From a virus (lineage: Duplodnaviria; Heunggongvirae; Uroviricota; Caudoviricetes), in the IMG/VR virus record IMGVR_UViG_2875703104_000005: DNA of 42,114 bases; one strand, written 5' to 3'. The notes under the pieces are model-generated. The model had not been told where the DNA came from. It was given only the letters and a program-made list of their open reading frames with translations, and did not search any database. Positions 3,738 through 36,000 of the stretch are shown here, in pieces; the stretch's first letter is position 1, and every line of letters begins with the position of its first letter. The position numbers and the translations under genes are program-made.

Positions 3738-4555
3738 ATGTACATATCCTGTTTGCGTGCCCACTCAGGGCGTTTAATGATTTCCACACCGCCCCATTCA
3801 TCATTGATGCGGCATTCGTGATAGGTATTCAGATCCCGGCGGAACAGAGCGTGCCCGGCATCGACATCCTGCGCATCCAGCTCGAACACGCGTACCGGAT
3901 ACCGACCACAATCAATGCTTTCGCTCACGGCAAGAAAGAAAAAACCATGCGGCTGACCAGTAACCCTCATTGCGCCTTCGCGGTACATTGCGTCCTGCAC
4001 GTGGTAGCGGAATTCCTCGATGTGGCGTGCAAAACGGTCCATATCTGCAACCTTTTTCACGTCGACGATCACGTTGTGCTCGTTCAGCCATTTGTCTGGA
4101 CGAATTCGGCACAACTCCCCCGTCTCTTCATCGTTCCAGTACATTGATGCTTCGCAGTAACCAGGTGCTTCCAACATCCAGCGTGCCGCCGGGTGAGCCA
4201 TTGCGCTATCACGCATCAGCTCCAGTTTCCGCCACTGCTCTGCATCAAGTACCGAAATCCCCATATCCGCAATATCACGAAGAAATGCCTCTTCGTCAGC
4301 TTTACCTTGTTTCGTCCGACGTTCGAATTTCGGTGAAACAATGAAGCGTTTGTCGAACTCTCCAGGCTCCAGAAGCAGACAGTGCAATGCGGTTCCCATA
4401 TCCAGTGCAGACTTTTTCTCTTCGTCTTCTGGTGCTGCCTGAACCCATTTAAGAAGCGCCGGATTCTTGGCAACCATGTCCAGTTGCGACTTACTCACGC
4501 CGTCACCGGCGTGGTAGTCTTCGTTGCTGATGTCGAAATAAATTCCCGGTTTCAT
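3734..4555 (-). CDS. PD-(D/E)XK exonuclease, recombination partner of the annealing protein
   Basis: 273 aa; N-terminal GIYFDISNEDYHA and D-x-K ... E-x-x-Y-x-x-Q block (VDVKKV ... EEFRYHVQDAMY) typical of phage exonuclease VIII-like nucleases; translationally coupled to the annealing protein gene. Confidence 0.65.
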   Translation of the reverse strand: MKPGIYFDISNEDYHAGDGVSKSQLDMVAKNPALLKWVQAAPEDEEKKSALDMGTALHCLLLEPGEFDKRFIVSPKFERRTKQGKADEEAFLRDIADMGISVLDAEQWRKLELMRDSAMAHPAARWMLEAPGYCEASMYWNDEETGELCRIRPDKWLNEHNVIVDVKKVADMDRFARHIEEFRYHVQDAMYREGAMRVTGQPHGFFFLAVSESIDCGRYPVRVFELDAQDVDAGHALFRRDLNTYHECRINDEWGGVEIIKRPEWARKQDMYI

Positions 4556-4851
4556 GCCGCGTCCCTCTGCCCATCAAGCTGATCAGCCAGATCCCAGCGG
4601 GCGATAATTGCCATTGCCTCTCGCCGGTAGGAATCCATCAGTTCTTCGAACTCTGGACTGTCTTTAGCGGCCTCCAGTACTTCCTGGCGAACGCCTTTAC
4701 CTGTTACAGCGTCGAAAGTTGAGGCCAGTTGATGAAGCCGGATGCTCTCGATCAGTTCAACTTGTCGGTCATATAGCTGTTCTGACAGGCGGTAGTCCTT
4801 GTCGAATGCCAGCATGATTTTTTGAAGATTTTTCTGCTGATTAACGTTCAT
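4552..4851 (-). CDS. Hypothetical early protein
   Basis: Start chosen at ATG 4851 (MNVNQQ) with GGAGGG RBS; overlaps the stop of the upstream small ORF. Confidence 0.5.
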   Translation of the reverse strand: MNVNQQKNLQKIMLAFDKDYRLSEQLYDRQVELIESIRLHQLASTFDAVTGKGVRQEVLEAAKDSPEFEELMDSYRREAMAIIARWDLADQLDGQRDAA

Positions 4852-4853
4852 TA

Positions 4854-5006
4854 TCAGCCCTCCCATATCTCGTTATCGTTGGCCACATCGCGAGCTTCTT
4901 TGCTGACGAAAGCCCACTTAATGCCTTCCTGTAAGGTGCGGAACTTCCAGCTCATGAATCCGCATGCAGTAACGCAGTACCAACCGTTGATGATTTTCCA
5001 CTGCAT
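4854..5006 (-). CDS. Small Cys-containing protein (50 aa), first gene of the leftward early operon
   Basis: Not in the ORF track (under 60 aa). ATG at 5006 with GAGGT RBS; stop couples to the next gene; operator-like palindrome at 5087-5103 upstream. Translation MQWKIINGWYCVTACGFMSWKFRTLQEGIKWAFVSKEARDVANDNEIWEG. Confidence 0.35.
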   Translation of the reverse strand: MQWKIINGWYCVTACGFMSWKFRTLQEGIKWAFVSKEARDVANDNEIWEG

Positions 5007-5086
5007 AACTTGTTACCTCGGTCTGTTACCGTTGAGGTAATAATTATGCGTATTTGGTTTGATGTCAATAGATATGAGTTAAAAAA

Positions 5087-5798: not shown

Positions 5799-5863
5799 AT
5801 TACCCAACAGGTAAATGCACCTCATGGGTAACTATCCTTGATTTTTGTTACCTTATGGGTGAA
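5799..5863. promoter_or_regulatory. Three-site operator cluster between repressor and Cro-like genes
   Basis: ATTACC-CAACA-GGTAAA (5799-5815), degenerate TGCACC-TCATG-GGTAAC (5816-5832), GTTACC-TTATG-GGTGAA (5847-5863). The last lies in the spacer of a plausible rightward promoter (TTGTTA 5845-5850, TATTAT 5868-5873). Confidence 0.6.
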
Positions 5864-12683: not shown

Positions 12684-13280
12684 ATGATGCCTGCTGAACC
12701 TAAAACCTATAAACGCAAATCAACGCAATTTAAGCCGCTCACAGCAATGCAGGAGGCTTATTGCCAGTCATACATCAAAACGCCTGAAAACCAGACTCAG
12801 GCTGCGATTAACGCAGGATTCTCCCCAAATACAGCGGCAGTTAAAGCCAGTGTCATGATGCGCGATGAACGCATTCAGAAACGGATTGCCGAGTTGATGG
12901 AGGAGCGCAACAAACGAATGCGTGTCAGTGCTGATTACGTTCTCATGCGCCTGGTGGAGATCGACCAGATGGACGTGATCGACATCCTCAACGACGATGG
13001 GAGCCTTAAACCAATCCGTGAGTGGCCGAAAATCTGGCGCACTACGCTTAGTGGCTTTGATCTGTCATCGACCATCATGAACATGAACGAGGATTCAATA
13101 GAGACAATCCTCAAAAAAATTAAATGGCCTGACAAGGTGAAGAACCTTGAGCTGATTGGTAAGCATGTTGATGTCAACGCATTCAAAGAACGTCTGGATG
13201 TTAATGTGAATGTGACAATTGCTGATCGCATAGCAGCAGCCAGGAAGCGACTCAAAGAACGTCAGGATGGTAATCAGTGA
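12684..13280 (+). CDS. Terminase small subunit
   Basis: LTAMQEAYCQSYIKTPENQTQAAINAGFSPNTAAVKA matches the Terminase_2 HTH pattern. Start set at ATG 12684 because the ORF-track TTG start (12606) would include an intrinsic terminator hairpin. Confidence 0.65.
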   Translation: MMPAEPKTYKRKSTQFKPLTAMQEAYCQSYIKTPENQTQAAINAGFSPNTAAVKASVMMRDERIQKRIAELMEERNKRMRVSADYVLMRLVEIDQMDVIDILNDDGSLKPIREWPKIWRTTLSGFDLSSTIMNMNEDSIETILKKIKWPDKVKNLELIGKHVDVNAFKERLDVNVNVTIADRIAAARKRLKERQDGNQ

Positions 13281-14752
13281 CAGATACAGCGTTATCTCCT
13301 GAAGAGCAGTTAATCGAGGATATTGCAGGGTTCACTCACGATCCGCTTGGCTATGCCCTCTATGCGTTCCCGTGGGGGGAAGATGGGACTGAACTGGCAC
13401 ATGCCACCGGTCCACGTCAGTGGCAGGCTGATGCGTTCCGAGAGATACGTGATCACCTGCAGAATCCAGAGACGCGCTATCAGCCGCTTATGCTGGCACG
13501 CGCTTCGGGTCACGGTATTGGTAAATCCGCATTCATCTCAATGCTGATCAACTGGGGCATGTCCACTTGCGAGGATTGTAAGGTTGTGGTGACCGCCAAC
13601 ACCGACAACCAGCTACGAACGAAGACCTGGCCGGAAATTATCAAGTGGTCGAACCTTGCTATCACGAAAGACTGGTTTACCTGTACCGCTACCGCGATGT
13701 ACAGCAATGACCCTGGGCACGACAAGCGGTGGCGAGCTGACGCAATCCCCTGGTCTGAGCACAACACTGAGGCGTTCGCCGGACTACACAACGAGCGCAA
13801 ACGCATCATCGTGGTATTCGATGAAGCGTCGAACATTGCGGATCTGGTGTGGGAAGTTGCTGAGGGTGCGCTTACGGACGAAGACACTGAGATTATCTGG
13901 GTAGCGTTCGGAAACCCTACACGTAACACCGGGCGTTTCCGCGAATGTTTCCGCAAATATAAACACCGCTGGAAAACTGCGCAGATTGACAGCCGGACGG
14001 TGGAAGGCACTAACAAACAGCAGTTGCAGAAATGGGTTGATGACTACGGGGAAGATAGCGACTTCGTTAAAATCCGTGTGCGCGGCATATTCCCTGATGC
14101 ATCTGAATTGCAGTTTATCCCTACCGGTCTTACTGACGAGGCAATGAAACGGGTGGTAACCGCTGCGCAGGTTGCACATGCTCCGGTGATAATCGGCGTT
14201 GACCCGGCATACTCAGGCGTTGATGACGCTGTGATATACCTGCGGCAGGGGCTGCACAGTAAGGTGCTGTGGACTGGCAACAAGACCACTGACGATCTGA
14301 TTATGGCGAAGCGTATCGCTGACTTTGAAGACCAGTACCAGGCTGACGCAGTGTTCATCGACTTCGGTTACGGAACTGGTCTGAAGTCAATCGGTGACGG
14401 CTGGGGTCGTACATGGCAACTTGTTCCGTTCGGTGGCGCGTCTACTGACCCGCAGATGCTCAACAAGCGTGGGGAGATGTTCAACTCATGCAAGACATGG
14501 CTGAGGCTCGGCGGCATGCTGGATGACCAGGAAACAGCGGACGACCTGTCGGCAGCAGAGTACAAAGTTCGTGTGGACGGTAAAATCGTTATCGAACCGA
14601 AGGAAGATATCAAGGAGCGGCTTGGGCGTTCGCCGGGTAAAGGCGATGCGCTACTGCTGACGTTTGCTTTCCCTGTGTCGAAGCGTCTGCGAATTCCTGG
14701 GCAGCAGAACCAGCAAGGCAAAGCCATCACAGACTATGATCCTTTTGCATAA
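13277..14752 (+). CDS. Terminase large subunit
   Basis: 491 aa; ATPase region (LARASGHGIGKSAFI; VVFDEASNI) and C-terminal nuclease region; GTG start overlapping the small-subunit stop. Confidence 0.85.
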   Translation: MTDTALSPEEQLIEDIAGFTHDPLGYALYAFPWGEDGTELAHATGPRQWQADAFREIRDHLQNPETRYQPLMLARASGHGIGKSAFISMLINWGMSTCEDCKVVVTANTDNQLRTKTWPEIIKWSNLAITKDWFTCTATAMYSNDPGHDKRWRADAIPWSEHNTEAFAGLHNERKRIIVVFDEASNIADLVWEVAEGALTDEDTEIIWVAFGNPTRNTGRFRECFRKYKHRWKTAQIDSRTVEGTNKQQLQKWVDDYGEDSDFVKIRVRGIFPDASELQFIPTGLTDEAMKRVVTAAQVAHAPVIIGVDPAYSGVDDAVIYLRQGLHSKVLWTGNKTTDDLIMAKRIADFEDQYQADAVFIDFGYGTGLKSIGDGWGRTWQLVPFGGASTDPQMLNKRGEMFNSCKTWLRLGGMLDDQETADDLSAAEYKVRVDGKIVIEPKEDIKERLGRSPGKGDALLLTFAFPVSKRLRIPGQQNQQGKAITDYDPFA

Positions 14753-14775
14753 AAAAGCCCGCGAATCGGCGGGCT
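14751..14775 (-). terminator. Intrinsic terminator after the minus-strand moron
   Basis: Stem AGCCCGC/GCGGGCT followed on the minus strand by TTTTTT. Confidence 0.65.
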
Positions 14776-14778
14776 GAT

Positions 14779-14792
14779 TGTGACATGTCACG
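14779..14792. repeat. 14-mer TGTGACATGTCACG, copy 2
   Basis: Immediately 3' of the terminator hairpin that follows the terminase large-subunit gene. Confidence 0.6.
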
Positions 14793-14795
14793 GCG

Positions 14796-15218
14796 TTAGA
14801 AGGTTATTTTATCGAATGCGGCGTTGATTGCCTTGGCGTCCTGCTCAGCACCAACCACATCAAGTAAAGATCTTTTACTAAGCACTTCAGCCAGGCATTG
14901 TAACTTCATGTTGTATAAGTTTTCGCGCATGTAATCATCATCACTTTTTTCTTTGGCGTATACAGCGCGAGAAATATCAAACACATTGCCTTTTTCCATT
15001 TCAGTTTTCTGCGCTGAAATCCAGTCATGGCAAGTAACTCCTATTCCATGGTCATCGCTAAGCGTTAACCCGGCAAGTCGCTCACCTGGAATTGCTTCAC
15101 AAAGCATTTCATTTCCTGCAAAAACACCATAAAAAATTGAGTCATCACCCTGAACAATGCGTACATATTTGCACGGCCATTCATTTAGATATTTAGCTAG
15201 CATGTCGGCTGTTTTCAT
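14796..15218 (-). CDS. Hypothetical moron protein, antisense insert between terminase and portal
   Basis: 140 aa; AAGGTGAG RBS; intrinsic terminators on both sides; opposite strand to the flanking late genes. Confidence 0.5.
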   Translation of the reverse strand: MKTADMLAKYLNEWPCKYVRIVQGDDSIFYGVFAGNEMLCEAIPGERLAGLTLSDDHGIGVTCHDWISAQKTEMEKGNVFDISRAVYAKEKSDDDYMRENLYNMKLQCLAEVLSKRSLLDVVGAEQDAKAINAAFDKITF

Positions 15219-15230
15219 GATCTCACCTTA

Positions 15231-15253
15231 AAAAAATGCCCGGCGAACCGGGC
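15231..15253 (-). terminator. Intrinsic terminator downstream of the tRNA-Arg
   Basis: Stem GCCCGG/CCGGGC, loop, then ATTTTTT on the minus strand, immediately before the moron RBS. Confidence 0.6.
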
Positions 15254-15416
15254 GAACTGGAAGCAATGAGTTATGCCTTCCGTGGCTGTACTGGTTTACA
15301 GCATGAAGTCATCGCAATGGCGTCCTGCTGTAAAAAGGGCGGTGATAGTCCTTCAAGGGAAACCATCACCGCCAAGCCCCTGGAACTTCTGGCATCACGG
15401 TCCTTAGGCGTGATTC

Positions 15417-15493
15417 TGGCGTGGCATGCAGGATTCGAACCTGCGACCAACCGCTTAGAAGGCGGTTGCTCTGTCCAACTGAGCTAATGCCAC
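15417..15493 (-). tRNA. tRNA-Arg (anticodon UCU), phage-borne
   Basis: 77-nt cloverleaf read directly: acceptor GTGGCAT/ATGCCAC, D-arm GCTC AGTTGGACA GAGC, anticodon loop CTTCTAA, T-arm GCAGG TTCGAAT CCTGC, discriminator G, CCA. Closely resembles enterobacterial argU-type tRNA. Confidence 0.8.
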
Positions 15494-15814
15494 AACGCTG
15501 AGAGCACTTAGCCTGTTAAGGCGCCACACTTTGTCGCGGCTCCATAAATGCTCTCATCGTTGTACCCTCGTCTCTTCCGAGGCGTCACACCGAATCGCCG
15601 GGATGGTGAATCCCCGTGCGCGGAATAAAACCGCTCGACTTGCACATTCCGGCTACCTGGTTCGTTTGCCACAGCCAGGGAGGGTGCCCCTTAAACGCAT
15701 CCAGACCGCTATCGGCGCATGTGCCATACGCCGTACTGCTCAAAATAAAAGCTCACTCCACCTGTTCAATTTAACGACAAGCCAGTCAGGTTAGTAACCG
15801 GAATGAACTCTTTG

Positions 15815-15831
15815 GTTACCTGAAAGGTAAT
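15815..15831. promoter_or_regulatory. Operator-like palindrome GTTACC-TGAAA-GGTAAT upstream of the portal operon
   Basis: 90 bp upstream of the first structural-operon ATG; core identical to the site at 36382-36398. Confidence 0.5.
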
Positions 15832-15920
15832 AATTCGCACGTTAAATGTCAACTGTCTACGATAAATAAATCATATGTGGTTAAATTGGTAATAATTTAA
15901 TTGCGTACGGAGTCATTGAT

Positions 15921-16127
15921 ATGTGCATGGGTAGCTCACCATCAGTGCCTGCAACACCAGAAGTTCAGGCAGCACCACAGGAGCAGGATGCCGCCGTTGT
16001 TGATGCCCGCGACGAAGAAACTCGTCGCCGTCGCGCTGCTGCTGGTCGTAGTTCTACGCTGCTTACCGGTTCTCAGGGCGACACATCAACTGCTAATACC
16101 AGCGGTAAAACGCTGCTTGGTCAGTAA
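15921..16127 (+). CDS. Small virion-associated protein (T7 gp6.7-like by position and composition)
   Basis: 68 aa starting MC, low complexity, immediately upstream of the portal gene with GGAG RBS. Confidence 0.4.
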   Translation: MCMGSSPSVPATPEVQAAPQEQDAAVVDARDEETRRRRAAAGRSSTLLTGSQGDTSTANTSGKTLLGQ

Positions 16128-16141
16128 CCGGAGTCATTGAA

Positions 16142-17821
16142 ATGGCGGAAACAACTAAAGAGCGATTGAACAAACAGTTCGCACAACTTGAAAGCGAGCG
16201 TCAGTCGTTCGAGCCGCACTGGCGCGAGTTGAGTGATTACATCAACCCGCGTGGTTCCCGCTTTCTGACTTCTGAGGTTAACCGTAACGATCGACGCAAT
16301 ACACGCATTATTGATTCGACCGGGACTATGGCGGCGCGCACTCTCGCCAGCGGCATGATGTCAGGCATCACAAGCCCCGCGCGTCCGTGGTTTCGCCTGG
16401 CTACGCCAGATCCTGAAATGATGGATTATGGCCCTGTTAAGTTGTGGCTTGAGGCGGTGCAGAACCGCATGAACGATATGTTCAATAAGTCGAATCTCTA
16501 TCAGTCGCTGCCGCAGTTATACGGAAGCCTCGGCACATACAGCACTGGTGCAATGGCAGTGCTGGAGGATGACGAGGACATCATTCGCACAATGCCATTC
16601 CCGATAGGCAGTTACTACCTGGCTAACTCACCTCGTGGCAGTGTGGACACCTGTTTTCGCAAGTTCTCTATGACTGTTCGTCAGCTTGTTCAGGAGTTCG
16701 GGCTAAATAACGTCAGCGAATCCGTAAAAAGCATGTGGGAAAGCGGAACCTACGAGAAGTGGATTGAAGTGATGCATTCGGTTTACCCGAACATTGACCG
16801 CGATACATCGAAGCTGGATAGCAAGAACAAGCCATTCAAATCGGTTTATTACGAGGTTGGTGGCGATAACGACAAGTTGTTGCGTGAGTCCGGATTCGAT
16901 GAGTTTCCAATTATGGCTCCGCGCTGGGAAGTTAACGGCGAAGATGTTTATGGATCATCATGCCCGGGTATGCTGGCGCTTGGACCTGTTAAGGCATTGC
17001 AGCTTCTCCAGAAGCGCAAGTCGCAGTTGATTGATAAAGCCACCAATCCGCCGATGGTTGCTCCGACTTCCCTCAAGAATCAGCGTGCCTCCCTTCTTCC
17101 TGGCGACATCACGTATATCGATCAGATTACTGGTCAGGATGGTTTCAGGCCTGCTTATCTGGTTAACCCCAGTACAGCAGATTTGGTGGCAGACATTCAG
17201 GACACCCGTCAAATCATTAACAGCGCCTACTTTGTCGATCTGTTCATGATGTTGCAGAACATCAATACCCGCTCGATGCCTGTTGAAGCGGTGATCGAAA
17301 TGAAAGAAGAAAAACTTCTGATGTTGGGGCCGGTTCTGGAGCGTCTGAACGACGAATGTCTTAATCCTCTCATTGACCGCGCTTTCTCGATGATGGTGCG
17401 TAAAAACATGCTGCCGCCACCGCCTGACGCGATGGAAGGTATGCCCCTGAAGGTCGAATACATTTCCGTCATGGCTCAGGCGCAGAAGTCTATCGGCCTG
17501 TCCAGTCTGGCGTCTACGGTCAACTTCATTGGTCAACTTGCGCAAGCGAAACCAGAAGCTCTCGACAAACTCAACGTTGATCAGGCGATCGATGCATTCG
17601 CTGATATGTCCGGAGTGTCTCCAACCGTCATTGTTCCGCAGGAACAGGTTGAGCAGGCTCGCCAGCAACGGGCACAGCAACAACAGCAGCAACAAATGAT
17701 GGCGATGGGGATGGCGGCGGCACAGGGTGCCAAGACGCTAAGCGAAGCTAAAACTTCGGATCCGAGTGTTTTGTCAGCTATGGCGAATGCAGTTAGTGGT
17801 CAGGGTGGGCAATCACAATGA
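16142..17821 (+). CDS. Portal (head-to-tail connector) protein
   Basis: 559 aa; Gln/Ala/Met-rich C-terminus (QQQQQQMMAMGMAAAQGA) resembles podovirus gp8-type portals; sits between terminase and scaffold/capsid. Confidence 0.75.
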   Translation: MAETTKERLNKQFAQLESERQSFEPHWRELSDYINPRGSRFLTSEVNRNDRRNTRIIDSTGTMAARTLASGMMSGITSPARPWFRLATPDPEMMDYGPVKLWLEAVQNRMNDMFNKSNLYQSLPQLYGSLGTYSTGAMAVLEDDEDIIRTMPFPIGSYYLANSPRGSVDTCFRKFSMTVRQLVQEFGLNNVSESVKSMWESGTYEKWIEVMHSVYPNIDRDTSKLDSKNKPFKSVYYEVGGDNDKLLRESGFDEFPIMAPRWEVNGEDVYGSSCPGMLALGPVKALQLLQKRKSQLIDKATNPPMVAPTSLKNQRASLLPGDITYIDQITGQDGFRPAYLVNPSTADLVADIQDTRQIINSAYFVDLFMMLQNINTRSMPVEAVIEMKEEKLLMLGPVLERLNDECLNPLIDRAFSMMVRKNMLPPPPDAMEGMPLKVEYISVMAQAQKSIGLSSLASTVNFIGQLAQAKPEALDKLNVDQAIDAFADMSGVSPTVIVPQEQVEQARQQRAQQQQQQQMMAMGMAAAQGAKTLSEAKTSDPSVLSAMANAVSGQGGQSQ

Positions 17822-24562: not shown

Positions 24563-25128
24563 TGTGTAACCCAGCCATCGCTTTGGTTGCCGTCACAGTG
24601 GCATCCACAGCCGCGTCAATGTACAGCCAGAGCAAGCAGGCAAAATACCAGTCAGCCATAGCTGATCGGAATGCTGAAATTGCTGAAGCTCAGGCACAGG
24701 ATTCAATCAATCGTGGGAATATTGAAGCGGATCAGCGTCGTCGTGAAATGCGTCAACGCTCAGGCACTGCGGCGGCCACTATGGGGGCTACCGGTGCGGA
24801 ATTAAGTAGCGGAACAGCTCTTGACGTTTTTGCGGATAATGCTCAGTTCGGCACTCTTGATGCGTTAACGACAGTGAATAATGCTCAGCGTGAGGCATAT
24901 GGGTATCAGGTTCAGGGAATGAATGCTCAGGCACAGGGGGCTGCTGCTCAGTCGGCTGCTAAATCATCGATGACCAGCACTTTGTTAACGGCACCACTAA
25001 AAGCATACGGTGCATATAAGTTGGGTAGCGGAAGTATCAATCCGATTAGTAAGCAAGGAAACACGCCAATGTTATCTAACTCAGGTTTTATGAATTCTGA
25101 CTCCCGATTCAAAATAGGAGGTTACTGA
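24562..25128 (+). CDS. Internal virion protein
   Basis: 188 aa, N-terminal hydrophobic segment, Ala/Gln-rich; upstream of two very large core genes. Confidence 0.4.
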   Translation: MCNPAIALVAVTVASTAASMYSQSKQAKYQSAIADRNAEIAEAQAQDSINRGNIEADQRRREMRQRSGTAAATMGATGAELSSGTALDVFADNAQFGTLDALTTVNNAQREAYGYQVQGMNAQAQGAAAQSAAKSSMTSTLLTAPLKAYGAYKLGSGSINPISKQGNTPMLSNSGFMNSDSRFKIGGY

Positions 25129-27875
25129 TGCCTGTTGTTCCTACTACATCCGGACGCCAGGTGCAAAGTCGTGGTGTGCAAACCGGTGGTTTTCAGACCT
25201 TCGATGTTCCTCAAGCAGGTCAGGTGCTGGCGAATGTCGCAGATCAGTATGCGGTGGCATATGGTGAAGCCAGGCAGAAAGCGAATGTTGCTATGGCCCA
25301 GGAGGCGTTACTGCAATTTAACCAATTTGCAGATGACCAGATTAACAACCCTGAAAATGGGCTGATTTCTAAACAGGGTAAAAACGCTCTTGGTCAGAGT
25401 GACGCTGTTATGAAAAATATGCAGGAAAGGGCTCAGGCATTATTAGGCTCAATTCCTGAAAGTGAGGAAAGGAATAAATTATCCTTTCAACTCCAGCAGT
25501 CTATGCAGTCTTATTACAATCAGGCACGTCGATATGAAGTTGGGCAGTTTCAGCAATTCCAAGATCAAACGTATTTGTCAGGAAATGCATTGGCTGTCAC
25601 TCAGTCTGCGGGGCTATATAGCGATAACCAAGCATTTGTCGATTTAGCCAAGCAGCGATTTGAATCTATTGATCAATACGCTGATGCGCATGGGCTTCCT
25701 GATGAGTGGCGTGTTCAGCAGAAAACTCAGCTCAAGGAACAAATGGGGCAGCAAGCATGGATAGGAAATATCGCTCAAAAATACAACGAGTTTCTTCAGG
25801 TTAATGGAGAGCCAGGGGATCTTGATGGTGTGAGTCGTGCAATATCACATGGTAATTCATTGGATGCTCGTGGTTTACGTAATAATAACCCCGGTAATAT
25901 TGAAGCGAGCAAATCTAACCCGTGGGAAGGTCAGATCGGTAGCGATGGACGTTTTGCAACGTTTGCTACCCCTGAGCATGGAATCCGCGCGTTGGGTAAA
26001 AATATGTTGTCTTACCAGCGTCAAGGCTATGACACCGTTAGCGAGATTGTTAATCGCTATGCTCCGGCTAGTGATGGTAATAATACTGATGCTTATATTA
26101 GGGCATTGTGTGGTGAGCTTGGTGTTGGGGAGAATGATCAGCTTGATATCTCTAACCCAAAGACACTAGCTGCTTTATGTGCTGGGATTATTAAACACGA
26201 AAATGGCAGTATGCCTTATAGCACCGAACAGCTTGAAACTGGTATCTCGGCAGCCCTTGGTCTAACTAACCTTGATTCACCTAAGCGTTATACGGGCAAT
26301 GCGGCATTTGATGCTATGAGCCCTCAAATGCAAATACAGGCATTGAGGCAGGCTAATGAGCTGAGAAATCAGTACCGCCAGCAGTATGCGGACCAGCTTA
26401 GCACCGTAGTTAAAGATGCATATTCAGCCCTTGATGAAGGATTGAAACCTGAGAAGTTACCTTCTGAGGACGATTTTATCCGGGCCAATGGTCCGCGCAT
26501 TGGCGCTATGAAGTGGAAGGATATGCAGGCGCAGATACAATATGGAGGTGTCATTGGTGCCGCTAAAGACCTCACTCCAGAAGGACGGCAAGACATTCTT
26601 GAACGTTTACGTCCACAGGATCCAAACGCTCCTGGATTTGCAGCTAACCAGCAACGCTGGGAGAAAATGCAGGCCAAATTTAAAGAGATGGATAGGGAGT
26701 GGGAGATTCAGCAGGGAAGAAACAGGTTCGTGTCTTCAATGCAAAATAACTTCCCGCTGGACCCGAACGACAAAAACAATCAGGCAGCGGTAGACCGTTA
26801 TTTCGCGCAGGATATCGCGCCTTCGTTTTCCATATCTGATCCGCAGAGCATCAATACACTGGTCACCGTCACAACTAAAAGCGGCATGATACCAACTCAG
26901 ATTAAAACAATGCTTAACAGTGGAGCGACATCAAGAGATCCTGCGCTGGTTGTCCCGATGGCAAAATTCTACGGTCAGTTATTCGATAATAATCCGGCGG
27001 CAGCGGCAACACTTGATAAAAGTACGATGGCATTTTACGGCAAGGTTTACGATTATTCCCGCGCTGGCGTGCCGGAGGATAAGGCTGTTGATATGGCTTA
27101 CAGCCAGGTGTTCCAACAGGATGACCGAATGAAACAGATGCTTTCCACTGCCATGCGAGACAAAAAATATGTCGCGGCGAGGGCAACTGCTGCACAAAAT
27201 AACGCCAGCAGTCTGACTTCCTTTGGTTCGTGGTCTCCGGATATTACCGATCCAGGAAAATCAAATGCGGCCTATCAGCGAGATTACCAGACAATTTACG
27301 ATGCTAACTTTGTACAGACAGGTGGCGATGCAGAACAGGCTGAGAAAATGACCAATGCCATGATCAGAACCACTTGGGGAGTTTCTACGGTTAATGGCAA
27401 AGCAGAGGTTATGAAGTATGCACCTGAGGCATTGTACGGAGTAAATAATGGTGCTGGTAACTGGATACAGGGGCAGTGGGAGCAGGAAAAACGCGAGCTT
27501 AAATCAAAATCCTTTGGCGGTCCTCGCAGTGATACGGACTTAATACTTGTTTCTGATGGCCTTACGGCAAGGGATAGGAGTTATGCTGTTATGGTTTTAC
27601 AGCCTGACGCAAACGGAGCGATAGAACCGAGAAATTATATTGGAGAAAATGGTCTCCCTGTTCGTTTCAAGCCGGATCAGCTGACATCTCCAATGTACAG
27701 GCAAACCATTCAGTTCCAGCAACAGCGTGTTGATGAGGCTAGAGTGCGGAGAGAAGGCAATCCGCTGCCGCAGTTCAGCAATAAAGATGGATATACTCCT
27801 CCAGATCTGACAAAACCATTCGGTTATGGTTCAGCCAATTACCTTCCGAGCAATATATACGCAGGGGGCAAATAA
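25128..27875 (+). CDS. Large internal virion / core protein
   Basis: 915 aa; contains a conserved block RNNNPGNIEASKSNPWEGQ ... FATFATPEHGIRA inside an AT-rich, apparently mosaic middle segment. Confidence 0.5.
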   Translation: MPVVPTTSGRQVQSRGVQTGGFQTFDVPQAGQVLANVADQYAVAYGEARQKANVAMAQEALLQFNQFADDQINNPENGLISKQGKNALGQSDAVMKNMQERAQALLGSIPESEERNKLSFQLQQSMQSYYNQARRYEVGQFQQFQDQTYLSGNALAVTQSAGLYSDNQAFVDLAKQRFESIDQYADAHGLPDEWRVQQKTQLKEQMGQQAWIGNIAQKYNEFLQVNGEPGDLDGVSRAISHGNSLDARGLRNNNPGNIEASKSNPWEGQIGSDGRFATFATPEHGIRALGKNMLSYQRQGYDTVSEIVNRYAPASDGNNTDAYIRALCGELGVGENDQLDISNPKTLAALCAGIIKHENGSMPYSTEQLETGISAALGLTNLDSPKRYTGNAAFDAMSPQMQIQALRQANELRNQYRQQYADQLSTVVKDAYSALDEGLKPEKLPSEDDFIRANGPRIGAMKWKDMQAQIQYGGVIGAAKDLTPEGRQDILERLRPQDPNAPGFAANQQRWEKMQAKFKEMDREWEIQQGRNRFVSSMQNNFPLDPNDKNNQAAVDRYFAQDIAPSFSISDPQSINTLVTVTTKSGMIPTQIKTMLNSGATSRDPALVVPMAKFYGQLFDNNPAAAATLDKSTMAFYGKVYDYSRAGVPEDKAVDMAYSQVFQQDDRMKQMLSTAMRDKKYVAARATAAQNNASSLTSFGSWSPDITDPGKSNAAYQRDYQTIYDANFVQTGGDAEQAEKMTNAMIRTTWGVSTVNGKAEVMKYAPEALYGVNNGAGNWIQGQWEQEKRELKSKSFGGPRSDTDLILVSDGLTARDRSYAVMVLQPDANGAIEPRNYIGENGLPVRFKPDQLTSPMYRQTIQFQQQRVDEARVRREGNPLPQFSNKDGYTPPDLTKPFGYGSANYLPSNIYAGGK

Positions 27876-30800
27876 TGCCGATATATGAACAGGATCCTAA
27901 AGAGTTGCTTGGCGAGGGTATTCAGCAAATAGCAGCACCTGATGACAGTAATTTCTATATGGAAACACCTTCTTTGCTTTCTGCTGTGAACCCATTTACC
28001 AGTGATCAACGCGTTCAAAGGTCTAGACAAGCAGCATTTCGTATAGATAACACGCTGGGTAGCTTTATTGCCAGTGCTCCTTTCAGTCAGTTTGACAGGG
28101 TTGAAGGATATAACCCATTTGATAACGATGCAGCAGATATTAAAGGCTATGAAGATTTTGCAGATTCGTTTATCAACTCCGGTTCGCATGAAGAAACAAT
28201 GGCAATTAAACATCGAATCGATCAGCAGAGAGCTGACATGGAATACAATTCAGGCTTGGGATTTGCTGGTACAGTCTCTTCTGTAGCAATGAGATTAGCA
28301 GATCCATTCAATGCGATTTCTATGTTTATTCCGTTCGGCGCTGTCGTTCGTGGCGGTCGTATTGCAGAAACAGCCGGACGTTTTGCTTTAGCCAATGCTG
28401 CTGGCAGTGTTGCTTCAGAGGCCGCATTGCAGGCCACTCAGGAAGCTCGCTCACCGATGGAGAGCGTATCGAACGTTGTTGTTGATGCTCTCGTTGGTGG
28501 GATCCTTGGTGCTGGTGCACAGCTACTTGCTGGACCTAGCGCGCGCGAGGCAGTGGTTAACTCAGTAGGTAATCATTTGCGAGGTATGGATTCTCCTCAA
28601 AGCATTGGTGCAGCTCAGGTTTTCAATACCACACTCGATCAGGAACAGCTTGCTGGACTTGGACTTGCTAACAAAACGTTGAGTGTCACTCCTGCTGGCC
28701 GCTTGGCGCAATCACCATCTCTTGTTTCCCGTCAGATTAACCAGCAGCTTGCCGAAAATAACTATTTCTTCGCCAAAAATGATGAGGGGTTGGCTACGTT
28801 TACGGCAGTCGAGACTAAGATTAAGCAATACGACGCCATGCTTTATAAGCAGATGGAAGCTACTCGTGATGCTTACCAGCAGTACAGCAAATCTGTCAGC
28901 GCCCGCGGCGTGAAGAGGATGAACTTTATTGATTTCAATGAAGCTGTTGGCATGGCTATGCGCCGTGGTGATCAGAGTGATATTCCTGAGGTTTCACAAG
29001 CAGCCGCCAGAATCCGCCCCATTTTTGAGACCACAAAAGCCCGTATGCAGGAATTGGGGATCCTTCCTGAGGATATCGATGTCGTGACGGCGAAGAGTTA
29101 TCTTCCCCGCATTTATAAGTTCGATAAGATACTTTCCGACCGCACTGAATTCAGAGGGCGAATTGCCAACTGGATACAAGGGATTAGTGCCAAAGGTGCT
29201 GACAAAGCAGGTCAGCGAATTGAAAAGATAAATTCATTGCTAAAAACTGCAGAGGAATCAGCACCGCGCGCTGATGCTCTCGCTAGTGAAATCGCTGAAG
29301 CGGAGAAATGGTCTGGTAAAAAAATTCTACTCATGGAAGAACTGGATAAACGAAATAAGCTTATATCTCAGGAGACTGACACACAGGCGCGTCTTACAAG
29401 AATAGAAAAAGAGTTGGCCGAGACTTCATCAGAAAAACTTCAGGCAAGAATGATGAAAGAAAGCTCTGACCTTAAAACACGCCTTGATGATATAGCGCAG
29501 GCAAAGAGTGAGCTTCCTGTCTATCAGCGCCATATGGAGTTGCTGGATAATCCACGGAAATATCGTTCTGAGCTTCGCCGACTGCAAAAACGGGCAAATT
29601 CAACCACAAGGCTGAATGCAAGCCGCGAGCGAGCACTGAAGCAGATGGAGCCTCTATCCCGAGAGGAAGCAGAGGACGCTGCTGACGAGATCGTGAATAA
29701 AATAATAGGCGCACCTTCCGGGCTTGTACCAGCCGATATTATCCCAGAGAGACTCGTTGGTCGGGCTGGTTTCACTAAAAGCCGAACGCTGCTTATTCCT
29801 GATGAGCGTATAGAAGATTTTCTTGAATCAGATGTTAACTACATCATGGAAAGTTATCTCCGGCAGGTGGCACCAGAAATTGAGCTGACTGCGCAGTTTG
29901 GCCGTAAAGATATGGGGGAGCAAATCCGTCAGGTTAGTGAGGAATATACCCGGCTAATAAAAGAGGCTAAAACACCTAAACGACGTGCAGCTCTTGAGAA
30001 GCAACGGGAGGCTGATATTAGGGATATTACGGCTATGCGTGACCGACTGCTTGGTACTTACGGCGCACCTCAAGATCCACGCAGTTTCTTTGTTCGTGCC
30101 GGGCGAGTTGCTAGGAATATTAACTTCCTCCGTTTGCTTGGTGGAATGACCGTCTCCGCTGCAACTGATCTGATGCGACCGATGATGCAGCATGGCCTGA
30201 GAAAATCTCTCGGACCAATGGTAAGCATGCTTAAAAATATGGACTCAGTGAAAATTGCAACCAGGGATTTGCGAGAAATGGCAGTTGGGCTTGATTATGT
30301 CCTGTCTACGCGTACAAAGGCTATAGCGGATCTTACTGACCCCTATAGCCGGAGAAGCGCCGCTGAGCGAGGTCTGAACTGGATGACGCAGAAATTCGGT
30401 AACTGGACGCTGATGAATCAGTGGAACAGCGCACTTAAATCATGGTCTGGGATGATAGTGCAGTCGAGGATACTTGACGCGGCTCGCCAAGTTTCTGCTG
30501 GTGGCACGCTCTCCAAAAGTGAAATGCGGAAGATGGCACAGGTCGGCATCAATGAAGATGTTCTGCGCCGAATCGGGGAGCAATTCGGGAAGCACGGAGA
30601 GGATATGGACGGGCTGTTAACCGGGCATAGTCATCTGTGGGATGACCGTTTCGCTAGAGAGATTTTCCAGTCTGCAGTGCTGAAAGATGTAGACTCAGTG
30701 ATTGTAACGCCTGGCGTAGGTGATACACCGCTGTTTTTTAGTAAAGAAGGCTGGAAGATGATCACGCAGTTCAAAACGTTTATCTTCGCACAGCATAACA

Positions 30801-31264
30801 GGGTGCTGGTATCTGGTATCCAGCAGGGCGATGCTGCATTCTATCTTGGTGCGCTTGGCACGATTGCGCTTGGCTCAATGGTCTATATGATGAAACAGAA
30901 GTTAAGCGGTCGCGATATCGACTACAGCTGGAATAACCTTGTGAAAGAGGGGATCGACCGGGGCGGAATGCTTGGCTGGCTCTCTGAGCCGCTGAATACC
31001 GTTGAGAACATAAGCGGCGGTAGGTTTGGTCTTGGCGCGATGTTTGGTGCGCCTCCGGTATCAAGGTTTCAGAGTCGTAATGCTATTGGTGCTTTACTTG
31101 GTCCTACCTTTGATCTTGGCGGTGATGCCGCGACGGTTGCGAATGGTGTACTTAACGGAGAATTTGACAGCCAGCAAACCCACGCGGTCCGTAAAATGCT
31201 ACCTTTTCAGAACCTGTGGGCGATATCACCATTACTGAATAAAGTTGAAGAGCAGATGAAATAG
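27875..31264 (+). CDS. Very large internal virion / DNA-ejection protein
   Basis: 1129 aa, long coiled-coil middle region, C-terminal hydrophobic segments; last gene of the core string. Confidence 0.5.
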   Translation: MPIYEQDPKELLGEGIQQIAAPDDSNFYMETPSLLSAVNPFTSDQRVQRSRQAAFRIDNTLGSFIASAPFSQFDRVEGYNPFDNDAADIKGYEDFADSFINSGSHEETMAIKHRIDQQRADMEYNSGLGFAGTVSSVAMRLADPFNAISMFIPFGAVVRGGRIAETAGRFALANAAGSVASEAALQATQEARSPMESVSNVVVDALVGGILGAGAQLLAGPSAREAVVNSVGNHLRGMDSPQSIGAAQVFNTTLDQEQLAGLGLANKTLSVTPAGRLAQSPSLVSRQINQQLAENNYFFAKNDEGLATFTAVETKIKQYDAMLYKQMEATRDAYQQYSKSVSARGVKRMNFIDFNEAVGMAMRRGDQSDIPEVSQAAARIRPIFETTKARMQELGILPEDIDVVTAKSYLPRIYKFDKILSDRTEFRGRIANWIQGISAKGADKAGQRIEKINSLLKTAEESAPRADALASEIAEAEKWSGKKILLMEELDKRNKLISQETDTQARLTRIEKELAETSSEKLQARMMKESSDLKTRLDDIAQAKSELPVYQRHMELLDNPRKYRSELRRLQKRANSTTRLNASRERALKQMEPLSREEAEDAADEIVNKIIGAPSGLVPADIIPERLVGRAGFTKSRTLLIPDERIEDFLESDVNYIMESYLRQVAPEIELTAQFGRKDMGEQIRQVSEEYTRLIKEAKTPKRRAALEKQREADIRDITAMRDRLLGTYGAPQDPRSFFVRAGRVARNINFLRLLGGMTVSAATDLMRPMMQHGLRKSLGPMVSMLKNMDSVKIATRDLREMAVGLDYVLSTRTKAIADLTDPYSRRSAAERGLNWMTQKFGNWTLMNQWNSALKSWSGMIVQSRILDAARQVSAGGTLSKSEMRKMAQVGINEDVLRRIGEQFGKHGEDMDGLLTGHSHLWDDRFAREIFQSAVLKDVDSVIVTPGVGDTPLFFSKEGWKMITQFKTFIFAQHNRVLVSGIQQGDAAFYLGALGTIALGSMVYMMKQKLSGRDIDYSWNNLVKEGIDRGGMLGWLSEPLNTVENISGGRFGLGAMFGAPPVSRFQSRNAIGALLGPTFDLGGDAATVANGVLNGEFDSQQTHAVRKMLPFQNLWAISPLLNKVEEQMK

Positions 31265-32983: not shown

Positions 32984-33000
32984 TTACCTTTGCGGTAAAT
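32984..33000. promoter_or_regulatory. Operator-like palindrome ATTACC-TTTGC-GGTAAA at the start of the left anti-repressor leader
   Basis: Marks the start of the inverted-repeat leader that precedes the Bro-N anti-repressor gene. Confidence 0.5.
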
Positions 33001-33090
33001 TTACACCGCACTCCTCTTGTGCCATAGTAATCGGGCACTGGCAAAATCCAGTGCCGGGATTGGCGTCCCGGATTACTAAAAGGCGCATTC

Positions 33091-33110
33091 ACCGCGCAAG
33101 CGGTTTTTTT
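33091..33110 (+). terminator. Leader terminator / attenuator upstream of the Bro-N anti-repressor
   Basis: Stem ACCGC/GCGGT with GCAA loop and a 7-T run, about 100 nt downstream of the operator-like site. Confidence 0.5.
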
Positions 33111-33267
33111 ATGCGTATAGCACGGCCACATTCGTATTATGGTGGGCTGTGTGGGGGCACCGAAAGGTGCGCCGGGTCCTTTTAGCCGGTTACGCCAACC
33201 CTGCACAGTTCACCACCAACCGATTGGCGTCGGTAGTGGTGATTAACCAGACTAAAAGGTAACCACT

Positions 33268-34109: not shown

Positions 34110-34742
34110 ATGAGAACAAATACAACAAGAAAAGCGATGCCATACATTATCCCAGAAGCAGATTTCGATAGAAAACTGAACATGTCTGAGAAGAACACTA
34201 GTCACACCGAAAGCTACTTAGCGAAAGGTGTGGTTGATTTCGTTCTTCCGGGATTCACAACACCTTATGGTTATCGCCTTGTAAAATCTTGTAATGGCGA
34301 TCATTACAGAATGATTACTACCAGCGATACTCCAGAAACGGTGTATGCGGTTAAGTTAATCTTTCGGGAAGATATCGTCGAAGCCAAAAGAACATGTACG
34401 CAGATCATGGTATGGCGTACGCCTAATGTTATTCATGACCGTGCTGTTCATGGTTTGCCTCAGATTTTTTTTCAGTTCTTCCTAGAGCAATATGCGATCG
34501 TTGTATCTGATGAGCAACAAACAATCGATGGGAGAAGATTCTGGGAAAGAATGATTTCTTGGGCTATAAACACCCCAGGATATAATGTATACGTTTCAGA
34601 TGGCTCTGAAGAAGATAGACCTCTTAGCTTCATGACATCATGGGATGATTTCTATAGCCAGTGGGCTGATTTCTGTTGGGGCAGTGATAAAGATGTGCAT
34701 ACCCACAGACTACTGGTTATAAGCAAAGATAAACTGCATTAA
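34110..34742 (+). CDS. Hypothetical moron protein with its own operator-like site and terminator
   Basis: 210 aa; GGAGG RBS; operator-like palindrome 59 bp upstream; strong terminator immediately downstream; lower GC than the core genome. Confidence 0.5.
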   Translation: MRTNTTRKAMPYIIPEADFDRKLNMSEKNTSHTESYLAKGVVDFVLPGFTTPYGYRLVKSCNGDHYRMITTSDTPETVYAVKLIFREDIVEAKRTCTQIMVWRTPNVIHDRAVHGLPQIFFQFFLEQYAIVVSDEQQTIDGRRFWERMISWAINTPGYNVYVSDGSEEDRPLSFMTSWDDFYSQWADFCWGSDKDVHTHRLLVISKDKLH

Positions 34743-35730: not shown

Positions 35731-35888
35731 GATGGCGTCTCCACTTAGCGAATTACATCACCACCGCTGAGACCAATCAGATGGTGGTGAACTGAACGGA
35801 GTTGGTCTTACCGGCCTAAGTGGTACCGGCGTCCTTTCGGACCCCCATTCAGCCCACCATAATTCTGGCATGACTGTGCTATACGCAT

Positions 35889-35910
35889 AAAAAAACCACG
35901 TCTGGCGTGG
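35889..35910 (-). terminator. Leader terminator / attenuator upstream of the AntA-type anti-repressor
   Basis: Stem CCACG/CGTGG with a 7-T run at the equivalent leader position; stem sequence differs from the left arm but pairing is preserved. Confidence 0.5.
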
Positions 35911-36000
35911 TATGCGCCACTTAGTAATCCGGGAGACCAATCCCGGCACTGGATTTTGCCAGTGCCCGATTACTATGGCACAAGAGGAGTGCGGTGTAAA

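Follow-up and report, generated by a model that had tools for sequence, protein, structure and literature searches.

A conserved structured leader RNA at the head of a putative early antisense unit with exchangeable payloads in epsilon15/phiV10-like phages

Analysis of a 42,114-nt stretch of phage DNA (hereafter the window) led us to view the region between the terL and portal genes as one early transcription unit, antisense to both, probably controlled by the phage repressor and conserved across epsilon15/phiV10-like phages, the leader RNA of which most likely aids read-through; this is the reading we consider probable. The tRNA and the cargo gene of the unit are ordinary for this group of phages, and the new item is the leader RNA. 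The latter is unannotated and belongs to no Rfam family, yet roughly 30% of complete E. coli genomes contain it, and it is also carried by P1 and by Shiga-toxin and cdt converting phages. Were it to control early read-through, it would account for the expression of the left operon in lambdoid phages devoid of N and offer a way to approach how toxin-converting prophages are induced; the 'sRNA promoter' published for E. coli K1 would then turn out to be one segment of a longer structured transcript. Whatever its role, the leader marks a portable module made of leader, payload RNA, terminator and cargo, which would explain the accumulation of tRNA and accessory genes at this spot. The features referred to below are listed by window position; promoter, operator and terminators are consensus matches in the sequence.

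1-1251: integrase gene
13277-14752, plus strand: terL
14749-14775, minus strand: T3, end terminator of the antisense unit (hairpin 14775-14756; terminator scan)
14796-15218, minus strand: cargo gene, 140 aa, ATG start, phrog_4846 (ORF and PHROGs match)
15219-15229, minus strand: Shine-Dalgarno sequence AAGGUGAG and spacer of the cargo gene (read from the sequence)
15230-15253, minus strand: T2, 6-bp all-GC hairpin (15253-15238) followed by ATTTTTTT/AUUUUUUU (terminator scan)
15331-15373, minus strand: T1, 14-bp hairpin (15373-15338) followed by CUUUUU, 44 nt past the tRNA (terminator scan)
15417-15493, minus strand: tRNA-Arg, anticodon UCU, full length with encoded CCA (ARAGORN, Rfam tRNA model, argU alignment)
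15493-15562, minus strand: 3' domain of the leader RNA, with long closing stem P6 (CAACGAUGAGAGCA...UGCUCUCAGCGUUG; compensated variants)
15563-15735, minus strand: core of the leader RNA, with helices P1, P2, P4 and P5, a pseudoknot, a variable P3 and the 19-mer GGUAGCCGGAAUGUGCAAG (covariance model R1)
15816-15830, no strand assigned: operator-like palindrome TTACCTTTCAGGTAA, abutting the -10 hexamer (motif count)
15830-15859, minus strand: promoter-like site of the antisense unit, TAGACA, 18 nt, AATTAT (promoter scan, sequence re-read)
15921-16127, plus strand: gp3-like gene
16142-17821, plus strand: portal gene

The host phage is an epsilon15/phiV10-like (Uetakevirus) prophage integrated at guaA. 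On the minus strand, between terL and the gp3-like and portal genes, the unit comprises in this order a sigma-70-type promoter with its operator-like palindrome, a leader of ~330 nt that closes with the conserved RNA (its final ~240 nt), tRNA-Arg(UCU), T1, a short conserved leader ending in T2, the cargo gene and T3. Of 36 distinct terL-flanked loci that show this antisense architecture, 23 contain the tRNA, and about 10 to 15 unrelated families occupy the cargo slot across such loci. The preliminary description of this region had taken it for an insert in the late operon and had it begin at 14751, a coordinate that overlaps the stop codon of terL. Comparison of the loci indicates instead that the antisense unit is a genus-wide conserved feature of which the payloads alone get swapped.

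The conserved leader RNA as a whole spans 15735-15493 of the minus strand, or roughly 240 nt, the last base of P6 being G1 of tRNA-Arg. Its core packs five covarying helices into ~170 nt, one of them the pseudoknot, in which the UCACC loop of P4 pairs with GGUG. P6 forms a sixth stem, preserved in other loci through at least five different compensated variants. Covariance model R1, which describes the core, scored 141.6 bits and found a single copy in the window. In an alignment of 68 distinct sequences, 94.8% of cells were paired and 155 were compensatory, compared with at most 50% in slid controls, and none of 500 shuffles attained the observed pairing or covariation score. The conserved G-U pairs make the fold strand-specific. 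The 19-mer is near-invariant, being intact in 22 of the 23 hits of a search keyed on another part of the element. Searching 15494-15743 against Rfam 15 yielded no match at the gathering threshold, nor at E≤5 with lax filters. Overall, the leader is highly conserved; few non-coding sequences of these phages are as well preserved. This structured RNA directly upstream of the tRNA was absent from the preliminary description.

The leader element was present in 1638 of 5426 complete E. coli genomes; matches outside Enterobacterales in the genome scan were judged by the model to be chance matches, and prophage CPS-53 of K-12 contains no copy. It is shared by three groups, namely epsilon15-like podoviruses, P1-type phage-plasmids and lambdoid phages without N, among which are Stx2 and cdt converting phages, and it lies in the early operons of all three. 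In every record inspected it was devoid of annotation, and literature searches on the 19-mer, on P1 trnI-ban transcripts and on the Uetakevirus tRNA returned nothing on it. In every context, early genes follow the element in the same orientation, and nowhere does it have a promoter or terminator of its own. Near-consensus promoters precede it in cdtI, mEp390 and the present phage; in cdtI, mEp390 and Stenotrophomonas phage BUCT708 it starts ~50 to 120 nt past the early-left promoter. The cdtI and Stx2a_1447 records include Q, whereas N, judged from annotation only, is either not annotated or not in the left operon. A strong terminator separates the element from the first genes in BUCT708 and in the yfdP-type prophages. 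Since our terminator scan was blind to hairpins whose loops exceed 8 nt (the hairpin past sRNA-17, see below, is one of these), calls of 'no terminator' for lambdoid loci are unreliable. In P1, the element sits within the C1-controlled ban operon, with tRNA-Ile ending 11 nt before it and no terminator between it and ban. Epsilon15, finally, has lost the leader core and retains T2 before its cargo gene.

Upstream of the leader, the site at 15859-15830 is the only promoter-like site on the minus strand between 14400 and 16500. The palindrome abutting it conforms to TTACC-N5-GGTAA, a motif of which the window contains 14 copies where 0.5 would be expected, those at 5800 and 5848 adjoining the repressor gene, and the epsilon15 record carries an annotated repressor-binding site in the same intergenic region. 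We infer that this motif is the phage operator. Because the sole promoter-like site abuts it, we read the antisense unit as a repressed early operon and not as a moron expressed during lysogeny.

The tRNA and the cargo gene are separated by two terminators, T1 and T2. A terminator belonging to the tRNA and touching the downstream ORF had been described earlier; terminators do exist there, but the tRNA-proximal one is T1, which had not been listed, and the one directly 5' of the Shine-Dalgarno sequence AAGGTGAG and ATG of the cargo ORF is T2. Among the loci compared, the T1 hairpin or a shorter counterpart in its position occurs only downstream of a tRNA, suggesting that T1 and the tRNA travel as one module; a few tRNA-bearing loci have no hairpin. 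A short GC-rich hairpin followed by a T-run right before the cargo start codon is found in most Uetakevirus-type loci, and the junction of T2, Shine-Dalgarno sequence and ATG is kept even in epsilon15, which has no tRNA. T3 follows directly on the stop codon of the cargo ORF, back to back with the end of terL, and its equivalent hairpin is annotated as a terminator in the phiV10 record.

The cargo ORF is a real gene, as had been proposed: with a pN/pS of 0.26-0.38 it is under purifying selection. Its 140-aa product has 111 homologues, none of them named and all from Enterobacteriaceae except one from Hafnia, and an exhaustive profile search retrieved 31 clusters only. No match to the protein was obtained in Pfam, NCBIfam, PADLOC or, by sequence search, the PDB, and PHROGs gave no function. 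Its AlphaFold model is poor (pLDDT 61.8), with confidence restricted to a C-terminal helical hairpin, and Foldseek of this model against the PDB returned nothing below E=0.9. In phiV10, a Gp49-family gene fills the slot instead, and homology between the two phages begins within ~15 nt of the start codon. A relationship of the present cargo protein to the phiV10 cargo protein phiV10p03 was considered and rejected, as the two display no similarity.

Together, these elements lead to the following model. Derepression would trigger transcription of the antisense unit, from which RNase P and 3' processing would free tRNA-Arg; the latter would raise the AGA-decoding capacity available to AGA-rich tail, injection and accessory genes. 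The promoterless cargo gene would be expressed only from transcripts that pass both T1 and T2. The leader RNA would most likely help RNA polymerase, or the transcript, to cross this long, untranslated and terminator-studded stretch, acting as an antiterminator RNA such as put does, though outside the put family. The preliminary description had left the choice between read-through and an embedded promoter for the cargo gene. Read-through fits better, in that the stretch from the tRNA to the ORF (15219-15416, minus strand) is free of promoter-like sites.

The put RNAs are among the closest known parallels of the leader. They render RNA polymerase resistant to termination via the zinc-binding domain of its beta' subunit. 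Like putL, which lies just downstream of PL and works without any phage protein (PMC9378689), the lambdoid copies of the leader are found ~50 to 120 nt past the early-left promoter in phages where no N gene is shown. This early-operon leader position was observed in cdtI, Stx2a_1447, mEp390 and BUCT708 (with N judged from annotation), and in several lineages a terminator lies between the leader element and the early genes. The two differ in size and complexity, the put RNAs of HK022 (putL and putR) and the put-like RNAs of HK639 consisting of two stem-loops within ~70 nt (the HK639 annotation gives 126 nt), compared with 170-240 nt, six helices and a pseudoknot for the leader, which moreover occurs as a single copy per genome, in the left operon. 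Homology between them was rejected: with filters off, the best R1 match in HK022 and HK639 scored 7.3 bits (E=0.29) and fell outside the annotated put-like RNA.

Transcription of the element is supported by published work on E. coli K1, in which RACE, Northern blotting and qRT-PCR detected RNA from the element-bearing strand (PMC7719688). The qRT-PCR forward primer sits at the 5' end of the element, indicating that the element itself is transcribed in K1. The RNA described in that study, sRNA-17 of strain RS218, originates from the same yfdP-type prophage locus and strand as the leader element, a correspondence that we established from the primers of the paper and the homologous locus. It consists of the 193 nt directly past P6 and ends at the next terminator (PMC7719688); it thus differs from the leader in excluding the element, which the paper treated as a promoter and ArcA-binding fragment. 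A blastn search of the window with the 194-nt homologue of sRNA-17 gave chance matches only, and the position of sRNA-17 is taken here by the module of tRNA-Arg and T1. 3' RACE on the K1 lysogen placed the transcript end at the terminator past the element, and yfdP was hardly expressed (PMC7719688), from which it follows that read-through is at best partial in the uninduced prophage. This 3' end speaks against a role of the leader in read-through, as do the loss of the core in epsilon15, the lack of a terminator before ban in P1 and the failure to match put. As epsilon15 retains T2, the leader is not strictly required there for cargo expression.

With these points in mind, we only tentatively put forward the broader proposition that the ~240-nt leader represents a new class of phage RNA, put-like but unrelated to put and common to three unrelated phage groups, which would act on RNA polymerase or Rho to let early transcripts cross terminators and untranslated payloads, and behind which tRNA or sRNA payloads and cargo genes would be plugged in as modules.

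A less likely account, which we nonetheless take seriously, is that the leader does not act on transcription at all and is a stable trans-acting RNA (a decoy, sponge or guide directed at a host factor) freed from the early transcript by processing of its ends. The proposed release would involve tRNA 3' processing in P1, RNase P in the present phage and cleavage at CGUU/GUGG in the yfdP-type prophages. In keeping with such an account, the ends of the element are those of tRNAs in two phage groups (the tRNA-Ile of P1 on one side, tRNA-Arg starting at the last base on the other), the 5' end of sRNA-17 was mapped in E. coli K1 to the last bases of P6, the long invariant unpaired stretches suggest a conserved binding partner, and epsilon15 does without the core. 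The K1 5' end, however, may reflect the halting of reverse transcriptase by a stable stem, and the invariable placement of the element upstream of early genes, in their orientation and without its own promoter or terminator, is at odds with an independent RNA.

We find improbable the view, developed from the preliminary description, of an autonomous moron in which the tRNA is joined to the 140-aa gene, and which would have an embedded promoter, have entered the late operon by insertion and be expressed from the prophage to the benefit of the lysogen. The unit does resemble morons and the accessory-gene hot spots of temperate phages in being a variable slot amid conserved genes that houses unrelated small genes and ends with a terminator: it is flanked by terminators and antisense to its neighbours, the cargo gene has a terminator of its own in T3, and the gene in the slot varies among phages that are otherwise 98% identical and thus occurs in some close relatives only, phiV10 and its unrelated gene being a case in point. 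Furthermore, the homologous region of a different type of prophage yields RNA detectable in uninduced cells (PMC7719688). The present slot differs from morons, however, in lacking its own promoter and in hanging on an early transcript that is probably repressed. The interval from the tRNA to the ATG has no promoter-like site and the Shine-Dalgarno sequence comes directly past the U-run of T2; the upstream promoter abuts a palindrome shared with the immunity region, which argues against expression from the repressed prophage; and a unit found throughout the genus was not inserted in the present phage. Autonomous expression in the prophage is not supported by these observations, and we favour the reading of an early operon served by read-through.

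That the conserved stretch is a DNA-level regulatory region, i.e., a promoter with ArcA sites, and not an RNA is very improbable. The fragment was used as the 'promoter of sRNA-17' in the K1 study, which reports ArcA control of sRNA-17 (PMC7719688), but the covariation preserves pairs and not sequence, the conserved G-U pairs would be mismatches on the other strand, and the near-consensus promoters of cdtI, mEp390 and the present phage lie upstream of the element.

With regard to the first payload, a complete, argU-like tRNA-Arg on the minus strand between terL and portal had been predicted, and the prediction is confirmed. ARAGORN identified tRNA-Arg(tct) at 15417-15493 (minus strand; anticodon at position 35) as the single tRNA of the whole window, and the covariance-model search suggested in the preliminary description returned a clear match, Rfam RF00005 scoring 73.3 bits (gathering score 29) and aligning over the whole of model positions 1-71. 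The gene is 83% identical to K-12 argU, from which it departs by compensatory changes in the acceptor and anticodon stems. The two share the anticodon loop, the D arm (D loop GGA), the T arm, A20, G73 and the encoded CCA; A20 and position 73 matter for arginine identity. Unlike argU, the present tRNA is phage-borne and would be under phage repressor control.

Codon usage, a comparison that had likewise been suggested, agrees with a supply role. Across 60 phage ORFs, AGA and AGG account for 7.3 and 5.8 per 1000 codons, respectively, versus means of 2.8 and 1.7 in four sampled host genes, and the housekeeping genes adjacent to the prophage (guaA, guaB and xseA) contain no AGA. Among the phage genes, AGA is missing from terL, portal, protease and capsid genes; 18 AGA codons are found in 25128-31264, 10 in 34110-34742 and 13 in 36502-38964, an ORF of 820 aa that presumably encodes the tailspike. 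On the basis of these codon counts, tRNA-Arg(UCU) would benefit AGA decoding.

The suggestion that the tRNA is a non-working 3' fragment or duplicate left at an att site by integration can practically be dismissed: argU or argW is indeed the integration target of many prophages, but this tRNA retains its full length, its four arms and its CCA, scores 73 bits and lies 15 kb inside a prophage whose integrase gene is at 1-1251 and whose type integrates at the 3' end of guaA (PMC9782041). A tRNA-Arg in this slot is already annotated in related phage records, of which our result is a confirmation. Phages of the phiV10 type (E. coli O157 typing phages 9 and 10, phiv142-3, SPN9TCW and SPC32H/N) have the same gene at the same place between terL and portal and on the same strand, the copies from E. 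coli phages being 98-99% identical in DNA to the present one, with no difference of substance. The gene is omitted from the PAS61 record, and the phiV10 record shows a spurious ORF on the opposite strand (phiV10p04) in its place.

The minus-strand unit of a tRNA-Arg(UCU) and a 140-aa open reading frame (ORF) lying between terL and the portal gene is real, and its tRNA part is already known; the worthwhile result is an unannotated leader RNA family, represented here by a conserved folded RNA directly upstream of the tRNA (the element), together with the modular unit that it heads. The features of the region, including three terminator-like hairpins (T1 to T3), are as follows.

13277-14752: terL
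14775-14756, minus strand: T3, terminator-like hairpin after the stop codon of the ORF
14796-15218, minus strand: 140-aa ORF (the cargo gene), with an ATG start
15253-15238, minus strand: T2, terminator-like hairpin, then AUUUUUUU and, at once, AAGGUGAG and the ATG
15373-15338, minus strand: T1, terminator-like hairpin 44 nt after the tRNA
15417-15493, minus strand: tRNA-Arg(tct) predicted by ARAGORN, the sole tRNA in the window
15735-15493, minus strand: the element, which ends on the tRNA's first base
15859-15830, minus strand: promoter-like site TAGACA-18-AATTAT, the only one near the unit on this strand
15921-16127: gp3-like gene
16142-17821: portal gene

The prophage adjoining guaA in E. 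coli MCJCHV-1 was 100% identical to the window over 1.5 kb around the finding, and Uetakevirus phages of the phiV10 and epsilon15 group were 98% identical over the same stretch. The integrase gene occupies positions 1-1251 of the window, and phages of this group integrate at the 3′ end of guaA, as also reported elsewhere (PMC9782041). The tRNA called by ARAGORN was recovered over the full model length by the Rfam tRNA model (73.3 bits). It shared 83% identity with K-12 argU, retaining the anticodon loop, the D and T arms, G73 and the CCA end, and differing from it by paired changes in the acceptor and anticodon stems. Since it is complete and lies 15 kb inside the prophage, its reading as a 3′ tRNA fragment left at an att site was ruled out. 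Of 36 distinct loci of this gene order, 23 carry the tRNA, which is already annotated in related phage records. The PAS61 record leaves it out entirely, and that of phiV10 carries on the opposite strand a protein ORF, PhiV10p04 (2672-2923 in phiV10, corresponding to 15236-15487, plus strand, of the window), which is probably spurious.

The 140-aa ORF, located between terL and the gp3-like and portal genes, belongs to phrog_4846, a family of unknown function. Its 111 homologues were from Enterobacteriaceae except for one from Hafnia, none of them named, and an exhaustive profile search yielded 31 clusters only; searches for family, defence-system and structure matches were negative, and the predicted structure of the product was too poor in quality for use. 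With pN/pS values of 0.26-0.38 against three homologues, the ORF is nonetheless a real gene. In phiV10 the same slot is occupied by an unrelated gene of the Gp49/Sf6-gp66 family, homology between the two phages starting within about 15 nt of the cargo start codon, and the genes in this slot fall into about 10 to 15 unrelated families across the 36 loci. Most Uetakevirus-type loci carry a short GC-rich hairpin and a T-run directly 5′ of the cargo ATG.

The preliminary description of a tRNA with its own terminator, an adjacent moron and flanking terminators thus holds in outline, except that two terminators, not one, separate the tRNA from the ORF. A minus-strand scan found no promoter-like site between them, so that, of the two routes to expression first envisaged, an embedded promoter finds no counterpart and the cargo gene would depend on read-through. 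The variable slot suits the term moron; the regulation does not, there being no promoter of its own and an operator-like palindrome, TTACCTTTCAGGTAA, abutting the -10 hexamer of the upstream promoter-like site. The motif TTACC-N5-GGTAA occurs in 14 copies in the window, against 0.5 expected (positions 5026, 5088, 5800, 5848, 6185, 8087, 8149, 12652, 15816, 32984, 34036, 36002, 36383 and 36615). Because the repressor gene has two copies on each flank, one pair lying between it and the cro-like gene, the motif is taken as the putative phage operator; in epsilon15, a repressor-binding site is annotated in the corresponding intergenic region. On this sequence evidence we interpret the unit as an early operon, one that would be off in the lysogen, and not as a moron driven by a promoter of its own. 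The scatter of the motif over many intergenic sites recalls the dispersed C1 operators of P1. The window also holds two inverted copies of an isrK + C4 antisense-RNA module (33035-33220, plus strand; 35780-35965, minus strand), the regulatory RNA type of the P1/P7 antirepressor immunity region, each facing antirepressor-type genes and having an operator-like palindrome ahead of it (at 32984 and 36002).

The 330 nt from promoter to tRNA are non-coding, yet 98% conserved among phiV10-type phages. About 650 E. coli records, comprising chromosomes and P1-like plasmids, aligned to part of this stretch with about 82% identity; among the matches listed, none had an annotation over it. Relatives of the element were found in other Uetakeviruses, in lambdoid phages and prophages (the cdtI, Stx2c and Stx2a_1447 converting phages, mEp390 and CPS-53-like prophages), in Stenotrophomonas phage BUCT708 and in P1, P7, D6 and SJ46. 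A scan of viral contigs with the near-invariant 19-mer GGTAGCCGGAATGTGCAAG returned at least 120 loci which, with those identified before, amount to at least 113 different sequences in at least 47 clusters at 90% identity. When one genome per species was scanned, using another portion of the element as the key, 23 hits proved true; apart from one probable contaminant they came from Enterobacterales, and 22 retained an intact 19-mer. A perfect enterobacterial-type copy (L167, 1157-1312; 164 bits) on a contig of 1.7 kb assigned to a Bacillota MAG probably reflects contamination or misbinning. The cdtI-type copy with its flanks matched 1638 of 5426 complete E. coli genomes, again with no annotation underneath among the matches listed. 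The window has one copy; a viral contig (L034) has two on the same strand about 800 nt apart (3997-4154 and 4804-4959). Rfam 15 gave no match to the element, even at E values up to 5, and a literature search for the 19-mer found no paper. A covariance model of the element, run with filters off, found nothing in HK022 or in HK639, which carries an annotated put-like RNA.

The predicted fold comprises a hairpin (helix P1), a long-range stem closing a variable insert (P2), a variable hairpin (P3), a hairpin whose conserved UCACC loop makes a pseudoknot with GGUG further downstream (P4) and a hairpin with a GAAGAGA loop (P5). Across 68 distinct sequences, standard pairs filled 94.8% of cells, compared to at most 50% when partners were slid; 13 of 29 pairs showed changes on both sides (155 compensatory cells), and none of 500 shuffles reached the observed pairing or covariation score. 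An earlier alignment gave the same picture. In yfdP-type copies the pseudoknot changes from C-G to A-U on both sides together, and G-U pairs, themselves conserved, make the fold specific to the transcribed strand. A sixth helix, P6, is a long stem that closes the 3′ domain and is retained through at least five compensated variants.

In other phages the element reads in the same direction as the early genes that come after it, within a shared layout: an early promoter, then the element, a payload RNA, a terminator and finally genes. In cdtI the element starts about 50 nt past a near-consensus promoter (TTGACA-16-CATAAT) situated behind cI and the cI terminator; in mEp390 and BUCT708 it starts about 55 and 120 nt, respectively, past the early-left promoter. 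The cdtI record annotates Q and not N, and no N gene is annotated in the inspected part of the Stx2a_1447 left operon. Between the element and the first genes lie a 7-bp GC hairpin and U7 in BUCT708, and a 10-bp hairpin and CUCUUUUU in the yfdP type. In P1 the element lies in the C1-controlled ban operon, starting 11 nt after tRNA-Ile and ending 95 nt before ban; this operon (L009, 269-370) also holds an annotated dicF-like region and three tRNA genes, and is thus long, RNA-rich and early. The payload in the window is the tRNA-Arg with T1; among the loci compared, T1 or a shorter hairpin in its place occurred only downstream of the tRNA, a few tRNA-bearing loci lacking it. In yfdP-type prophages and some tRNA-less Uetakeviruses, this junction (CGUU|GUGG) leads instead into an unrelated sequence of 136-194 nt. 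In epsilon15 (L007, 2528-2617) a single deletion took the 19-mer, the remaining core, the tRNA and the T1 stem, leaving of the leader only helix P1 and half of P2, with T2, the SD and the ATG retained.

Among published work, the closest is sRNA-17 of E. coli K1 RS218, which is 193 nt long and was mapped by RACE (PMC7719688). Placed by means of the published primers, it is exactly the stretch from the end of P6 to the next terminator, on the same strand, and the fragment studied as the promoter of sRNA-17 is the element itself. The qRT-PCR forward primer of that study falls at the 5′ end of the element, which is thus transcribed in vivo. sRNA-17 is the payload behind the element in yfdP-type prophages (L098, 194 nt after P6); the initial 136 nt of this payload are found behind the element at some Uetakevirus-type and other loci as well (L008, 2737-2912), so that it behaves as a mobile module of its own.

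We favour a role in which the leader helps transcription proceed past the terminators and across the long untranslated region. The element heads early operons of phages showing no N, and terminators come after it. A tRNA, itself excised from the transcript, can intervene between the two, an arrangement that a factor bound to the polymerase would fit better than a riboswitch-type attenuator; the put RNA likewise stays with the polymerase (PMC9378689). Against this role, epsilon15 keeps T2 despite having deleted the element core, tRNA and T1 stem, the terminator marks the 3′ end of transcripts in the K1 lysogen, where yfdP is nearly silent (PMC7719688), and P1 has no terminator after the element. 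In the main alternative, the leader would be a stable RNA that acts in trans after release by the processing events at its ends.

As to the tRNA, the proposal that it would supply AGA decoding is a reasonable one on codon counts. In a crude set of 60 phage ORFs, AGA and AGG stood at 7.3 and 5.8 per 1000 codons, compared to 2.8 AGA per 1000 in four host genes pooled; guaA, guaB and xseA, host genes beside the prophage, had none. Within the phage, AGA was missing from the terL, portal, protease and capsid genes, and was counted 18 times in the internal virion proteins (25128-31264) and 13 times in an 820-aa ORF (36502-38964) that is presumably the tailspike. The phage maximum by far was in the plus-strand ORF at 34110-34742, with 10 AGA in 210 codons (48 per 1000).
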